Shown here: positions 44,512 through 63,939 of the stretch, piece by piece
How the letters are laid out: each line of letters starts with the position of its first letter
Numbering within the stretch: the first letter of the stretch is position 1
DNA from: Acidimicrobiales bacterium
GTDB taxonomy: Bacteria > Actinomycetota > Acidimicrobiia > Acidimicrobiales > Acidimicrobilacustridaceae
Direction of reading: 5' to 3'
Assembly (NCBI GenBank): GCA_044239895.1
Contig: JBIIAM010000001.1
Span: forward strand, 478,401-542,400
DNA length: 64,000 nucleotides
Program-made: the position numbers and the translations under genes
The notes under the pieces: generated by a model
What the model was told of the DNA's origin: nothing
Database searches by the model: none
What the model saw: only the letters and a program-made list of their open reading frames with translations

Positions 44512-44583
44512 TGCCCCCGAGTGGACTCGAACCACCGCACATGGTTTAGGAAACCAATGCTCTATCCCCTGAGCTACGAGGGC
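44512..44583 (-). tRNA. tRNA-Arg (anticodon CCU)
   Basis: Hand-folded on the reverse strand. The acceptor is GCCCTCG/CGGGGGC, the D arm is GCTC-AGGGGATA-GAGC, the anticodon loop is TTCCTAA, and the T arm is GGTGG-TTCGAGT-CCACT. CCA is not encoded. Confidence 0.9.
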
Positions 44584-44679
44584 GGGGATGGACCGGAACG
44601 CGGCACGAAACTGTCGTGTGGCGGCCCGGGGCCATGGGTTGAGGGTAGTTCGGGGCCTATTGGGCGGTCGAAACTTCGG
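44577..44679 (+). repeat. island repeat, copy A (right half only, fused to the genuine tRNA-Arg 5' end)
   Basis: cgagggcggggatggaccggaacgcggcacgaaactgtcgtgtggcggcccggggccatggg...gggtagttcgggg...gggcggtcgaaac. The first ~63 nt are identical to copy E. Confidence 0.85.
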
Positions 44680-44750
44680 TTTAATCAAACCAAAGTTTCG
44701 AGCGCGTTCTTGGCGCGCTGAAGCCACCCGGTCCGAAAGTTCGGGTGGCT
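44669..44750 (-). terminator. three consecutive hairpins between the 531-aa gene stop and the tRNA
   Basis: First, cgaaacttcggttt-aatc-aaaccaaagtttcg (13 of 14 bp) at 44669-44700. Second, agcgcg-ttcttgg-cgcgct at 44701-44719. Third, agccacccg-N11-cgggtggct at 44722-44750. Confidence 0.4.
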
Positions 44751-44756
44751 ACGTAC

Positions 44757-46352
44757 CTATGCGGCGGCGGCGACCGCGTGATTTGGTGGCCTCCATTGAC
44801 CGAACCAGCGTGAAAGGTCCGCACCGGTTCGGTGGTGCCATGCGAGCAGTGTGGTGATCGCGAGGTGGGCTTGGTACCCGTGGAGGTCAAACAGTTGTCG
44901 ATGACGGCCAACGCTGCGGGCGCGTTCGTTTGGCAATGTCATCTTGAGGTGATGGTGCATCGATTCGGAGTCTTCGCGAAGTCCAAACAGCCGACCGAAT
45001 GAGTTATCGGTTTCAGGGATGACTCGCAGGGCGCGGGTGCGCGGTGTCTTGTCGGTGATCTCGTGGTTATAGGAGTTGTGTCGGATTGGTGTGGTGGCGT
45101 TGCGGAGTTTGCGGGGGATGCCGGGTAGGTCGGGGATCTGCCATGTTCCGTAGAAGCGGTAGGTGTCGGTGCGGTCACTCACTCGTTGTGTCCGCACCCG
45201 CACAAGTCCAACTGATTTGCGTTCGTCGCCGATGACCAGTTCGATGCGTGGGGTCCCGTCCACTGCCTGGACGACGAGGAATTTCTTGGTGCCGTCGGTG
45301 AGAGAGAATTCGCGCTCGTTGAGGTTGAAAACCGGAACTTTGCCAGATGAGGTGCGCTGCACTTTCGATACTGGCAAGAGGCCAGCCGAAAGCAGGCGGT
45401 CGTAGTCGGTGGCATGCAGTGCCATGTCGTAGACAAAGCCCTGCAGCCCGGGAAGTTGCGGAAAGATCCGCAGTGCCATGTCGACGGCAAGTGTGGCGTC
45501 ACTCATGTTCGAATGAGGCTTGAAGTCGAGCGCCATGATCAGTCGCTCGTTCGGATACGGATTGCGGGCGATGACGCTGACGAGCATGTTGCCGTTCGCT
45601 TGAGAGTTGTCTCGATAGGCGGTGGCATCGGGATCGAAACGTGTGGTGATGATTTCGCCAGTAGACGGGTCGACATAGGTGGGCGATGAACTGTTGTAGA
45701 GCGATGGAATCCAGGTTCCATCACCGCGCAGCATGTTCTGTGCGGCTGGTTCAGTCCACGAACCATTTTTCGGGTTGCACATGCCAGTGGCAATGGCGAT
45801 ATCGGCACAGAGAGTCTCGAATGCTGTTGCGAGACCTTCGACGGCGTCGTCGAACTCAACATGAGCTTTTCGGTAGCTGGCGTATTGATTTCGGGTGATG
45901 CCCGAAACCGAAAGGCGCCGGGTTGGGTCGTCGGGATAGGCGAGTACCGCTGCTTCGCAGATCAGGTTCCATTGCACCCGGTCACGAAAGAAGCGGTGGG
46001 TGGCGCGTGCTGAGCCGAGGATGGTGTTGGTGATGTTGAACAACAGCACATCGGCTGCAGCGCATTCGCGTGGTCGTCCGCTGCGAGCCTTAGGTGTCTC
46101 CTGTGACTCCATCTTCTCGGCCAGTTCCCAGAGGCCAGACCATGCGGCGATTGCTTGAATCTGTTGGGGGACCGACAGCTCAAGTGAGGCAGGTGTCGGT
46201 GGGCGTTTTCGGCCGGGCCGGATTCCAGCGCTGCCGGTCGGACCATCGAGGCGTTCCTCGACGGTGAAGTCACCCGGTTTGGCATTCAGCGACCGGATCG
46301 GGATCGGTTCGATACCGAAGGCTTTGACGCGGTTGCGGCGTTGCTTGGCCAT
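44757..46352 (-). CDS. 531-aa protein with Tn5/IS4-like DDE transposase signature (tentative)
   Basis: Has a basic N-terminus. Candidate catalytic residues are D211 (LRGDGTW), D309 (FVYDMALH) and E464, which lies within F-x2-R-x3-E-x6-K (FGLREDSESMHHHLK). That matches the IS4 Y-(2)-R-(3)-E-(6)-K spacing with Y replaced by F. D-D and D-E distances (98 and 155 aa) are close to Tn5. I found no flanking inverted repeats. Confidence 0.45.
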   Translation of the reverse strand: MAKQRRNRVKAFGIEPIPIRSLNAKPGDFTVEERLDGPTGSAGIRPGRKRPPTPASLELSVPQQIQAIAAWSGLWELAEKMESQETPKARSGRPRECAAADVLLFNITNTILGSARATHRFFRDRVQWNLICEAAVLAYPDDPTRRLSVSGITRNQYASYRKAHVEFDDAVEGLATAFETLCADIAIATGMCNPKNGSWTEPAAQNMLRGDGTWIPSLYNSSSPTYVDPSTGEIITTRFDPDATAYRDNSQANGNMLVSVIARNPYPNERLIMALDFKPHSNMSDATLAVDMALRIFPQLPGLQGFVYDMALHATDYDRLLSAGLLPVSKVQRTSSGKVPVFNLNEREFSLTDGTKKFLVVQAVDGTPRIELVIGDERKSVGLVRVRTQRVSDRTDTYRFYGTWQIPDLPGIPRKLRNATTPIRHNSYNHEITDKTPRTRALRVIPETDNSFGRLFGLREDSESMHHHLKMTLPNERARSVGRHRQLFDLHGYQAHLAITTLLAWHHRTGADLSRWFGQWRPPNHAVAAAA

Positions 46353-61409: not shown

Positions 61410-61424
61410 ATAATTTGAGATTAT
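61410..61424. promoter_or_regulatory. LysR-type inverted repeat ATAAT-N5-ATTAT in the oxyR-katG divergent region
   Basis: It lies 10 nt from the oxyR start within a markedly AT-rich 117-bp intergenic region. This fits the T-N11-A style of LysR boxes. Confidence 0.45.
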
Positions 61425-61517
61425 CGAAACTACAAATTACTTCTATTGGACTTCTTCAGTCGATGGGCGCAAGGTGGTCATGTCCTCATAATTCGCACAA
61501 CTGAAAGAAGGAAGACC

Positions 61518-63692
61518 ATGACCGAAAATATGGTTGGTGAGTGTCCGTTCTCAGGGGAGGGGGCATCCAATCGCGACTGGTGGCCTGACCAGATTGATGT
61601 ATCCAAGTTGAACGAATGGTCCACTGATGTCATGGGTCAGGAGTTCGATTATTCGTCGGCCTTTCAGTCGCTTGATCTCGCGGAAGTCAAGCAAGAGATT
61701 CAAGATGTCATGACCGATTCGCAGGACTGGTGGCCGGCTGACTACGGAACCTACGGGCCGTTCTTTATTCGGATGGCTTGGCACAGTGCCGGGACCTATC
61801 GCATTAGCGACGGACGCGGTGGAGCTGGTGCTGGCATGCAACGCTTCGCTCCGCTGAACAGTTGGCCAGACAATGCGAATCTCGACAAAGCCCGACGGTT
61901 GCTTTGGCCCGTAAAAAAGAAATACGGACGTTCTCTTTCCTGGGCTGACCTGATTATTTTGGCGGGCAACGTCGCGCTTGAATCGATGGGCTTCGAAACA
62001 TTCGGATTTGCGGGCGGTCGCCAAGATGTCTTCGAACCCGATGAAACCTACTGGGGCGCCGAATCGGCGTGGCTTGCCGACGAGAGGTACAGCGGCGATC
62101 GCCAACTTGAAGGGCCGCTCGCTGCCGTGCAGATGGGACTCATCTATGTGAACCCTGAAGGCCCCAACGGCGAGCCAGATCCAGTCGCGTCTGCTCGCGA
62201 TATACGAGAGACCTTTCTGCGAATGGCAATGAATGATGAAGAAACCGTTGCCCTTATCGCTGGTGGTCACACTTTTGGAAAGAATCACGGGGCAGCGCCT
62301 CCCGAGGGCGTTGTTGGTCCCGAACCGGAGGCTGCACCTCTGGTTGAGCAGGGCCTTGGTTGGAAGAACTCCTTTGGCGCTGGAAATGGTGCCGACACCA
62401 TCACGAGTGGGCTCGAAGGCGCGTGGACAAATAACCCGGTCAAATGGGACAACGGGTACTTCGACAATCTTTTCAATTTCGATTGGGAACTTACGACGAG
62501 CCCTGCTGGTGCAAAGCAATGGATTCCCAAAGCTGGCGCTGCTTCTGATGCAGTGCCGGACGCGCATCGCGCCGACGTTCGTCACGCACCGATCATGCTG
62601 ACGACAGATCTCGCGCTCCGCTGGGATCCTGAGTACGAGAAGATCTCTCGGCGGTTCCATGAGAATCCTGAGGAATTCGCCGATGCATTTGCTCGAGCGT
62701 GGTTCAAGCTGACGCATCGTGACATGGGCCCTTATGAAAGAGGTTGTGGTTCAGAAGTGCCCGTCGAAGCCCAGATCTGGCAGGATCCGGTTCCGGCGCC
62801 TTCTGGTCCGAATATCAATGCCGCAGAGATCGCCGAACTCAAGGCCGGAATCTCGACGTCAGGGCTCAGCGTCCACGATTTGGTTTGGACAGCATGGGCC
62901 TCCGCATCAACGTTTCGAGGCACCGACAAGCGGGGCGGGGCGAATGGAGGACGTATTCGTTTGGCTCCGCAGCAGTCCTGGGAAGCAAATGATCCTGCAC
63001 TAATCGCCAAAGTAATCGCCGCTCTGGAAGGGATACAGATCTCATTCAACAAATCGAATTCCACCGGTTCCAATGTCTCAATCGCAGATCTCATCGTGCT
63101 TGGTGGAGTCGTGGGAATTGAACAAGCGGCGAAAGCGGCGGGAAGGACGGTTGACGTGCCCTTCGCCCCGGGACGAACCGATGCTTCGCAAGAACTGACC
63201 GATGTCGCGTCGTTTGAGGTGCTTGAACCAGTCTTCGACGGGTTTCGTAACTATGTGCGAGACGGTCTCCCCATTCGCGCTGAGTCCCTTTTGATTGAGA
63301 AGGCGTCTCTGCTGACTCTGACTCCGAAAGAAATGACGGTACTTGTAGGAGGTCTCCGTCAGCTTGGTGTGACAACTCCTGAAACTGGCGATGGAGTGTT
63401 TTCCGAGCGGAAAGGTGTGTTGGCGAACGATTTCTTCACCAACCTCCTCGACAGTGCCACGGTCTGGGCACCCATTGACACGAACGAAACCAGATTCATT
63501 GGAGTCGAACGAGCAACTGGGCAGAAGAAATGGACGGCGAGTCGCGTCGACCTCGTATTTGGCTCGAATTCAGTACTTCGTTCATTGTGCGAGGTATACG
63601 GGGCTGATGACGGTGCAGAGAAGTTTGTCGACGATTTCGTTTCAGCCTGGGTAAAGGTCATGGATCTCGACCGATTTGATTTGCATAACTAA
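61518..63692 (+). CDS. katG: catalase-peroxidase
   Basis: Shows NRDWWP, the distal site [13 protein letters not shown], the proximal His context AGGHTFGK, and the two-domain length. I chose the ATG at 61518 after GAAGGAAG ([11 protein letters not shown]). Confidence 0.95.
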
Positions 63693-63749
63693 GGAACTTC
63701 GGTCGGGAGTGATGTGTGCGAAATTGATTCCGAACACCTCACTCCCGAT

Positions 63750-63939
63750 CGCGTTTCACTTTTGGCCGAAACGCGTTTCACCACCTATTTCTGTAAACCC
63801 GTTGACCTGCGGGTTTTGAATTACGCGCCATCCCCACGAGGGCGGGGATGGACCGGAACGCGGCACGAAACTGTCGTGTGGCGGCCCGGGGCCATGGGCT
63901 GAGGGTAGTTCGGGGCATGTTGGGCGGTCGAACGTTCAG
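63750..63939 (+). repeat. island repeat, copy E (full length; right half nearly identical to copy A)
   Basis: The left half resembles B, C and D. The right half is of the A subtype (ggaccggaacgcggcacgaaactgtcgtgtggcggcccggggccatggg). The motif gtcgaccggcaaagggtctctcgact follows it, and the same motif follows copy C. Confidence 0.9.

Follow-up and report, generated by a model that had tools for sequence, protein, structure and literature searches.

Five copies of a composite repeat on the 5' side of a tRNA-Arg(CCU) gene

The window analyzed here is a 64-kb stretch of the Acidimicrobiales contig JBIIAM010000001.1, and its subject is a region of about 19 kb that abuts the 5' side of a tRNA-Arg(CCU) gene and is divided into gene modules by copies of a conserved repeat. 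The tRNA gene, which we regard as the target for insertion of these modules, is at 44511-44583 on the minus strand (ARAGORN, anticodon CCT; Rfam tRNA, 60 bits). Its nucleotides 1-8 are GCCCTCGT, the plus strand reads ACGAGGGC at 44576-44583, and this same 8-mer recurs between the element ends described below. Five copies of the repeat are present in a single orientation at the positions given for them in a preliminary description of this DNA: A (44584-44680), B (56034-56224), C (57587-57775), D (58492-58682) and E (63750-63940). Copies B to E are about 190 nt long, and copy A is the right half alone, beginning directly past the 5' end of the tRNA. A 32-mer representing the most conserved part of the left half and a separate 25-mer have matches in the window only at B to E, with a shuffle expectation of 0.

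The right half of the repeat had been reported to resemble the DNA just 5' of the tRNA and to include the motif cgagggc, and we find this to be correct, the motif sitting within ACGAGGGC, the exact complement of tRNA nt 1-8. A division into subtypes (A and E versus B, C and D) is also evident, as copy E equals copy A at 91 of 97 positions and copy D at 75 of 97, and a 25-nt motif noted behind C and E is seen in the repeat alignment. The window's sole Rfam matches are two tRNAs, and with the threshold relaxed to E <= 1 there is still none at the repeats; the idea that they are a small RNA or a known RNA family was rejected on this result.

Each repeat is composed of two different element ends

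The center of the repeat reads ...CGCGCCATCCCC, ACGAGGGC, GGGGATGGCGCG..., a perfect 12-bp inverted repeat around 8 nt. The repeat is accordingly made up of an 86-nt right end (RE) finishing in CGCGCCATCCCC (...CCCC), the 8-mer ACGAGGGC, and a left end (LE) of about 97 nt that begins with GGGGATGGCGCG (GGGG...), and the tips of each element are 11-12-bp terminal inverted repeats of the form GGGGATGGCGCG...CGCGCCATCCCC. We interpret the 190-bp repeat as the RE of one transposon joined, through an 8-bp target copy, to the LE of its neighbor. The view that it represents one long attachment (att) core thus gives way to that of a composite in which the 12-bp inverted tips of two elements flank the target copy.

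At the tRNA-proximal boundary, copy A (44584-44680) is the LE of element 1 and begins GGGGATGGACCGG straight after tRNA nt 1; the LE region of this element extends to 44756, and takes in a hairpin behind the transposase gene. Junction B (56034-56224) contains the RE of element 1 (56034-56119), ACGAGGGC (56120-56127), and the LE of element 2 (56128-56224). Junction C (57587-57775) has an RE with the tip variant CGCGCACGTCCC (57587-57672), a degenerate 6-nt spacer, GCGAGC (57673-57678), and the LE of element 3 with tip GGGGTGTGAGTG (57679-57775). Junction D (58492-58682) is composed of an RE (58492-58577), ACGAGGGC (58578-58585), and the LE of element 4 (58586-58682), and junction E (63750-63940) of an RE (63750-63835), ACGAGGGC (63836-63843), and the LE of a fifth element (63844-63940) that is of the copy-A subtype. 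A further module had been anticipated at the edge of the window, and this LE is its beginning.

The RE holds two hairpins. The first (at 56034-56065 for example, and in all RE copies) is composed of two direct copies of CGCGTTTCAC with a 22 bp spacing and is also readable as a hairpin; the second has the form AAACCCG...CGGGTTTT. At the LE tip, the motif TGGCGCG occurs twice, 12 bp apart. From their sequences, the CGCGTTTCAC repeats or hairpins and the TGGCGCG pairs are candidate protein-binding sites or terminators. The possibility that the RE is a degenerate tRNA-Arg body (a pseudo-tRNA together with its promoter) was rejected, as local alignments with three tRNAs did not outscore those of shuffled sequences (p = 0.75, 0.02 and 0.37).

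We scanned one genome per species for the RE hairpin, and mapped junctions by BLAST in the resulting and later loci; these loci from other genomes are referred to here as KE-4 and by L numbers. The hairpin is present in just 19 DNA stretches with one to few matches per genome, and in two of these (Roseobacter and a Spirochaetota metagenome-assembled genome) the hairpin alone is in common and the match is by chance. Two contigs carry a Bifidobacterium label and are probably mis-binned; the other stretches are from Acidimicrobiia or unclassified Actinomycetota, and nearly all of the contigs with junctions are from freshwater Acidimicrobiia or unclassified Actinomycetota. Together with the four in the window, about 34 junctions of RE tip, 8-mer and LE tip elsewhere give a total of about 38 on about 20 contigs, with sequence conservation of 80-100% across the two distinct halves. 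The small one-gene modules that they bound range from 0.87 kb, the shortest module length, to 1.9 kb. In ten contigs (the window, KE-4, L006, L020, L021, L022, L023, L027, L036 and L041) an LE abuts nt 1 of tRNA-Arg(CCU), and in the complete KE-4 chromosome all of the exact-pattern matches found fall in the array beside this tRNA. The tRNA generally begins GCCCTCGT; in L021 it begins GCCCTTGT and the junction spacer is likewise GCCCTTGT, and the spacer therefore comes from the local target.

A predicted Tn5/IS4-like transposase and a catalytically dead recombinase

The gene adjoining the LE of element 1 codes for a 531-aa protein, Tnp531 (44757-46352, minus strand), that has no Pfam, PHROG, NCBIfam or PDB sequence match. 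In an alignment of its homologues, D211, D309, E463 and R459 are invariant and K470 is present in at least 90% of sequences, forming the motif Y/F-x2-R-x3-E-x6-K (R459-x3-E463-x6-K470) with either Y or F at R-3. An alignment-based AlphaFold2 (AF2) model has a predicted local distance difference test score (pLDDT) of 84.6 and a predicted template modeling score (pTM) of 0.85, and the four best Foldseek matches to this model are all to Tn5 transposase (probability 1.00, E = 3e-7 to 8e-6, about 465 aligned columns), followed by the Mos1, Hermes and P-element transposases. A profile search shows that the family has 1,535 representative clusters, at 50% identity. Neither Tnp531 nor any of 18 aligned members matches Pfam DDE_Tnp_1 (PF01609); among distant relatives, P0316 scores 24.8 bits against this model (cut-off 23) and P0322 matches with E = 0.007. 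The confident model, the Tn5 fold match, the invariant triad and the P0316 Pfam match together identify Tnp531 as a predicted Tn5/IS4-like DDE transposase of a sizeable unannotated family. Tnp531 was not recognized as a transposase in the preliminary description; on the strength of its fold and triad, it is likely to be the catalyst of insertion.

The adjacent gene (46353-47396, minus strand) abuts that for Tnp531 without a gap (46352/46353) and codes for a 347-aa protein with a tyrosine-recombinase fold, TR347 (PHROG integrase, E = 3e-13; weak XerC/XerA matches). In all 16 of the diverse homologues aligned, the Arg-I position is T, S or D; His-II is replaced by R or K, the LGH histidine varies, and at the nucleophile position 13 homologues have His and the other three Tyr. 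TR347 had been described as catalytically dead, and the lack of Arg-I in 16/16 and of the nucleophilic tyrosine in 13/16 bears this out; tblastn across the window reveals no other recombinase homologue. An inactivated tyrosine-recombinase domain encoded beside a DDE transposase gene is a TnsF-like arrangement, and we propose by analogy that TR347 may be a DNA-binding partner or target selector that recognizes TGGCGCG-type tips, the tRNA gene, or both. The TR347 sequence shows no N-terminus rich in Cys.

Locus L020 (7543-11578) is a mosaic when compared with the core of element 1 (44757-48837). The o134 and Nuc core genes and the major facilitator superfamily (MFS) gene are 98%, 92% and 96% identical respectively to those in the window, the transposase is 38% identical and the TR347 homologue 37% identical, and conservation of the LE is nonetheless about 90%. 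The two diverged genes, for the transposase and the recombinase-like protein, co-vary as a unit, and the mosaic implies that recombination has occurred between deeply diverged element lineages with common ends. A further variant is seen in L021 (7396-11620), a distant genome with the tRNA variant GCCCTTGT, where the transposase is kept, the recombinase-like gene is cut to a 94-aa remnant, and o134 and Nuc are lacking; its cargo includes a type ISP restriction-modification (R-M) enzyme, PP2C, Fic and GmrSD.

The left end resembles the native tRNA leader

Read on the tRNA strand, copy A contains a -10-like TACCCT about 58 nt upstream of the tRNA together with a -35-like TTCGAC block, and TACCCT is present in the tRNA-proximal copies read directly. 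Two loci, L030 and L031, have a tRNA-Arg(CCU) gene without an RE within 13 kb and look like empty sites. Their native upstream region begins GGGGATGGTGCGAAATGTGGTGCGAA, of which 21 of 26 positions are equal to the LE tip, in register, a score reached by none of 2,000 shuffles, and it has a TAACCT hexamer where the LE has TACCCT. A TANNNT-type hexamer is found 57-60 nt upstream of the tRNA in the native leader and in all of the proximal copies read, including that of the divergent L021 lineage, and we infer that it is a putative -10 box of the tRNA promoter. A search for further empty sites using the far-side amidohydrolase gained none, as P0113 and P0094 lack synteny with this tRNA.

The LE subtype tracks the transposase lineage. 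L041, which has a different host and tRNA body and an 88%-identical transposase, has an LE of the copy-A subtype, and the LEs of L022 and L023 are of the D subtype. The LE is homologous to the native leader, yet its subtype follows the transposase, and it is therefore an element-borne look-alike of the native promoter and leader. The preliminary description had taken copy A for the genuine tRNA leader; the homology to the leader at empty sites is real, but copy A itself belongs to the element.

Arrays in other genomes differ in content and share a polarity

An identical syntenic block in all relatives had been named in the preliminary description as a result that would refute it; instead, module content and order vary among genomes and the breakpoints coincide with the repeats. 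In KE-4, the CGNR-RidA-DUF1272 module and both of its junctions are matched at 91.5% identity over 1,758 nt, but the neighbors are different. The four-gene core of element 1 recurs at 84-98% identity in L022-L025 and L041; in comparison with L022-L025 the DNA identity is 84-90% and homology stops at the start of the cargo. The element 1 cargo is common to no other locus compared, and the same is true of the module containing the OxyR and KatG genes. The cargo adjacent to the core is different in each genome, and includes type I R-M variants, a BamHI-like/SNF2/NOV_C/methylase set, and GmrSD/Eco57I-like genes.

All of the intact cores seen beside a tRNA (in the window, L020, L022, L023 and L041) are tRNA-proximal, and transposase genes farther out are C-terminal stumps adjoining their LE. 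A gradient of this kind is to be expected if newcomers are added at the tRNA and elements decay with age. The L027 and L036 arrays have no transposase at all; a 552-aa open reading frame (ORF) in L036 was considered as a remote transposase and rejected (hhalign probability 0.1%). L027 has a single 4.4-kb non-autonomous element (FUSC_2, TetR and two YHYH proteins) between the tRNA and the amidohydrolase.

The L036 array is complete, and its far end is composed of RE, GCCCTCGT and an LE-like sequence next to the chromosomal amidohydrolase gene, as predicted by insertion upstream of the tRNA and downstream of its native leader. Several rearrangement breakpoints map exactly to the element tips with no 8-mer retained, at the RE of L027 and L029 and at the LE of L011 and L036 (at 9252). 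Such breakpoints are predicted by cleavage at the tips, and this support is specific to DDE chemistry. A resemblance of the flank preceding the L011 LE to that following the L027 RE is coincidental, and reflects the end of a coding region.

Cargo of the window elements and features flanking the tRNA

Element 1 (44584-56119, 11.5 kb, ends mapped) is autonomous and consists of the LE, the four-gene core, cargo and the RE. The first core gene, o134 (48400-48804, minus strand), is 96-98% identical in L020 and L022-L025, and no family match was found in the libraries scanned (Pfam, PHROG, NCBIfam and PADLOC). It is adjacent to Nuc322 (47492-48460, minus strand; probably 303 aa from 48403), a conserved core gene whose product has a C-terminal C-x2-C-x5-C motif and is 91-94% conserved in L020 and L022-L025. 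The nuclease label of Nuc322 is unverified, as it has no Pfam, PHROG, NCBIfam, PADLOC or PDB match and a single-sequence AF2 model is unusable (pLDDT 38). The cargo (49133-55944, plus strand) codes for a type I R-M system, hsdM (49133-50725), hsdS (50722-51999) and hsdR (52002-55169), and a pentapeptide-repeat protein (55222-55944), as assigned with Pfam.

Element 2 (56128-57672) is non-autonomous and carries genes for a CGNR/ABATE regulator (56253-56813, minus strand), a RidA-family protein (56817-57293, minus strand) and a DUF1272 protein (57386-57562, plus strand), all with Pfam matches. The last of these is a 58-aa zinc-ribbon protein (E = 1.8e-24) whose gene ends 25 nt before the RE; an 84-aa ORF on the opposite, minus strand (57364-57618), which starts inside repeat C, is spurious.

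Element 3 (57679-58577) is a 0.9-kb mini-element with one gene (57788-58450, plus strand, likely start 57839) coding for a secreted protein of tandem repeats of about 50 aa. The corresponding 150-nt DNA repeats vary in copy number, with more in KE-4. Homologues of this gene, for which there is no family assignment, are located just inside the RE in at least nine other loci; loci with a gene of this type include KE4, CAMAYJ, L001, L004/L029, L007, L008, L011, L018, L028 and WLMU. The protein may be either an ancestral component of the elements or a favored passenger.

Element 4 (58586-63835) is also non-autonomous, and codes for a flavin adenine dinucleotide (FAD) oxidoreductase (58814-60271, plus strand), a LysR/OxyR-like regulator (60474-61400, minus strand) and KatG (61446-63692, plus strand), as identified using Pfam and NCBIfam. 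The fifth element starts at 63844 and runs off the window with only its LE in view. Element 1 is the sole autonomous element of the array, with elements 2-4 and that at 63844 being non-autonomous or internally deleted derivatives whose cargo has regulatory, surface and oxidative-stress roles, and the earlier remark that mobility genes are confined to the tRNA-proximal module is correct within the window. The cargo assignments made previously also have family matches in Pfam (hsdMSR, CGNR, RidA, DUF1272, the LysR regulator and KatG), apart from a sulfide:quinone oxidoreductase (SQR)-like function in the module described as SQR-oxyR-katG, for which there is only a weak match below the cut-off.

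A Fic-domain gene (43084-44364, minus strand) lies on the 3' side of the tRNA and has a PADLOC match to the defense protein SoFic (E = 1e-70). It is within an insertion of about 1.4 kb relative to the close relative L020, in which the MFS gene directly follows the tRNA. A classical 3'-side island around the Fic gene was considered and rejected, as there is no tRNA 3'-end repeat and no second copy of the tRNA 3' end in the window. Classical Phage_integrase genes are located directly 3' of tRNA-Arg(CCU) in L022 (12970-14264, with an HTH_17 excisionase alongside) and L036 (15561-15929), and the catalytic tyrosine is present. These integrases are found on the tRNA 3' side only, and two unrelated kinds of mobile element therefore make use of tRNA-Arg(CCU), one on each side.

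Serial site-specific transposition and its alternatives

We propose that the 19-kb region was built by serial site-specific DDE transposition at the 5' boundary of the tRNA and consists of at least four stacked DNA transposons with cargo, all from one undescribed family; we assign this explanation a probability of roughly two in three. The preliminary description had listed serial accretion of unrelated modules on the promoter side of tRNA-Arg(CCU) among its possibilities, and the data support it. In the proposed mechanism, Tnp531 would make a staggered cut across tRNA nt 1-8, duplicating them as an 8-bp target-site duplication, and TR347 would confer site specificity in the manner of TnsF. 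The element would insert in one orientation between tRNA-Arg(CCU) and its promoter and leader, such that the LE comes to lie directly upstream of the tRNA and would replace the native promoter that is displaced. As each insertion would restore the target, later elements could use the site again and displace the older ones outward, with the outcome that the RE of element n, the 8-mer and the LE of element n+1 form what appears as a repeat. Non-autonomous derivatives would either be mobilized in trans or be left by internal deletion.

Several observations weigh against this proposal. The reading of the 8-mer as a target-site duplication rather than a recombination core is drawn from sequence, and promoter activity, TR347 binding and transposition are likewise predictions; the 8-bp direct repeat is always tRNA-derived, and we found no element that lies away from a tRNA and is flanked at both ends by some other 8-bp duplicate. 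Two 12-bp inverted arms around an 8-bp spacer are also the classic layout of a tyrosine-recombinase core, as in loxP and FRT. The RE tips at L027 2853-2938 and L029 11956-12041 abut unrelated DNA without ACGAGGGC; the search that found them was biased towards exceptions, and accounting for the missing 8-mer by a transposase-mediated adjacent deletion is ad hoc. The L036, L034 and L025 arrays end in a full junction followed by non-element genes, an arrangement that fits the displaced native leader and a remnant consisting of an LE alone equally well. At 86 and about 97 bp, the conserved ends far exceed the 19-bp ends of Tn5, and conservation of the LE remains at about 90% where the transposase lineages have only 38% identity. 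Lastly, a sigma-70 consensus scan of the LE called no promoter, the TANNNT hexamer included, and no intrinsic terminator was found there; because the scan called none, it is conservation alone that points to a promoter function for the LE.

The shared layout with loxP and FRT raises the alternative of site-specific recombination, in which the RE, 8-mer and LE constitute an attP-like core and circles integrate conservatively at the boundary of the tRNA and its leader. The enzyme would be either TR347 with a non-canonical active site or a recombinase acting in trans, with Tnp531 being unrelated or acting at some other step. The core architecture and a conserved unit of about 190 bp, a size suitable for attP, fit this explanation well, as do a spacer that is always the local tRNA sequence and an element that bears the leader of its target, much as tRNA-integrating islands bear tRNA ends. 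The far end of L036, with its order of RE, 8-mer, leader and chromosome, is exactly an attR, and three of the 16 TR347 homologues have retained a tyrosine at the nucleophile position. However, Arg-I is absent from all 16 homologues, His-II is R or K, 13 have histidine for tyrosine, and TR347 has no companion recombinase in the window; moreover, the L021 element has its transposase but only a fragment of the recombinase-like protein. The tRNA-side arm of the would-be attB is unlike the RE tip, the aberrant junctions break exactly at the tips and keep none of the 8-mer, and an intact, conserved DDE transposase adjoins the LE in every autonomous copy. We therefore consider site-specific recombination to be unlikely. 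A comparison of the correlation of tip variants within junctions with that within elements had too few independent cases to separate the models.

A second alternative, that the repeats are passive (a duplicated tRNA leader or a repetitive extragenic palindromic (REP) or miniature inverted-repeat transposable element (MITE)-like sequence) and serve as mere substrates for homologous recombination, is very improbable. The copies are 65-94% identical and in direct orientation, which would allow such recombination, and the L020 mosaic, with its swap of a 38%-identical transposase and the recombinase-like gene between flanks of greater than 91% identity, suggests that recombination does occur inside elements. 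But the repeats end sharply, have inverted tips, take their spacer from the target, and are tied to a dedicated transposase family. The preliminary description had named a dispersed REP/MITE-like element as an outcome that would undo its interpretation, and this identity was dropped on grounds of copy number and location, as there are no further copies in the 64-kb window and just a handful per genome, every one with a tRNA in view being at tRNA-Arg(CCU). Weakest of all is the suggestion of an integron-like capture array with a non-canonical recombinase, in which a fixed platform on the tRNA side acquires cassettes with the repeats acting as attC, for although there are very small one-gene modules set apart by a structured repeat and mobility genes only at the tRNA-proximal end of the window, there is no active IntI-type recombinase, the repeats are conserved in sequence and not in structure alone and are not attC, every module is delimited by two dissimilar ends whose tips are inverted, the genes of the supposed platform likewise lie between an LE and an RE and are found within arrays as decayed fragments, and the L036 and L027 arrays lack a platform.

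Serial transposition at the tRNA boundary, if correct, explains how abundant freshwater Actinomycetota with streamlined genomes, in which neither conjugative elements nor prophages are obvious at this locus, assemble and re-order a flexible island of defense genes (type I R-M variants, GmrSD, Eco57I-like and BamHI-like) and stress genes (OxyR-KatG). A broader claim is that these elements constitute a new class of promoter-replacing bacterial transposon, in which a Tn5-like DDE transposase from outside the Tn7 lineage has enlisted a domesticated dead recombinase to home to the start of a tRNA gene, a leader-mimicking LE keeps the tRNA expressed, and repeated homing and internal deletion yield integron-like arrays of mini-transposons, some with one gene, that form the main defense and stress island of streamlined freshwater Acidimicrobiia; we regard this as about as likely as not.

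Comparison with known systems

We found no description of this element family in the literature. Its unusual feature is the combination of a site-specific DDE cargo transposon with a dead-recombinase partner, homing to the promoter side of a tRNA gene and bearing a leader mimic, and if the proposal is correct, we could find no earlier example of a DNA transposon in bacteria that targets the promoter-side (5') boundary of a tRNA gene and compensates by means of a leader look-alike. Integrase-type tRNA islands, with direct repeats of the tRNA 3' end, do not match it, as the duplicate here is tRNA nt 1-8 together with a leader look-alike, and the long-standing 3'-side rule for tRNA-targeting elements would be inverted. 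Integrons (IntI, attI and structure-conserved attC) are not matched either, there being no active recombinase and sequence-conserved repeats of two halves.

The Ty3 and Dictyostelium TRE5 retrotransposons also target the 5'/promoter side of tRNA genes, which serves them as a safe haven. These are eukaryotic elements guided by RNA polymerase III factors, the promoter is not replaced, and their chemistry is unrelated to that of a bacterial cut-and-paste transposase. Tn7 inserts at attTn7 with site and orientation specificity, beside an essential gene that is left functional, and elements may be stacked; type I-D CRISPR-associated transposons (CAST) home to tRNA-Leu (PMC10293859). The elements described here are similar to Tn7 and CAST in that repeated use of one safe site stacks elements and the neighboring gene remains functional, and differ in that Tn7-like elements insert downstream of a marker gene whose promoter they need not supply, whereas these insert between the tRNA and its promoter and apparently provide a substitute promoter and leader.

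In the tycheposons of Prochlorococcus, insertion depends on active tyrosine (or serine) recombinases and leaves att repeats of partial tRNA sequence, about 40 nt long (bioRxiv 10.1101/2020.12.28.424599). As seen or proposed for our arrays, the hosts are streamlined and planktonic, serial insertion at the tRNA side pushes older elements outward, and decayed remnants and cargo make a flexible island whose heterogeneity peaks next to the tRNA. In contrast, the recombinase-like protein here is dead, a DDE transposase is present, and an 8-bp target duplicate lies at the 5' end of the tRNA.

Similarities to Tn5/IS4 include the predicted fold (over about 465 columns), the DDE triad, in which an insertion domain separates the second D from the E, the Y/F-x2-R-x3-E-x6-K motif, terminal inverted repeats, and a duplication of 8-9 bp, which is presumed for the elements here. 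Unlike these, Tnp531 lacks a Pfam DDE_Tnp_1 match and there is a strict single target and orientation, conserved ends of about 90-100 bp, a partner gene that appears obligatory, large cargo, and tandem arrays. As Tnp531 has no Pfam model, such islands are invisible to current annotation, and its family of about 1,500 clusters would be a sizeable unannotated insertion sequence/transposon group.

The closest parallel in organization is with the Tn6022-like Tn7 transposons, in which an inactivated tyrosine-recombinase domain in TnsF targets comM (Faure et al. 2023, PMC10293859). Both are DDE transposons with a dead tyrosine recombinase as the established or, for TR347, proposed selector, and both have a single preferred site, cargo for resistance or defense, and an island organization. 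They differ in that there is a single Tn5/IS4-like transposase here, with no TnsA, TnsB, TnsC or TniQ matches in the core (Pfam, NCBIfam and PHROG), that TR347 lacks N-terminal zinc fingers and would act as a selector by analogy, and that the target is the 5' boundary of a tRNA with a presumed 8-bp duplication, not comM with one of 5 bp. A compact two-protein system for insertion at a single site could be of interest to genome engineers, and if TR347 does act in this way it would be a second, independent pairing of a dead tyrosine recombinase with a DDE transposase, suggesting that exapted integrases are a general means of site-specific transposition and not a peculiarity of Tn7.

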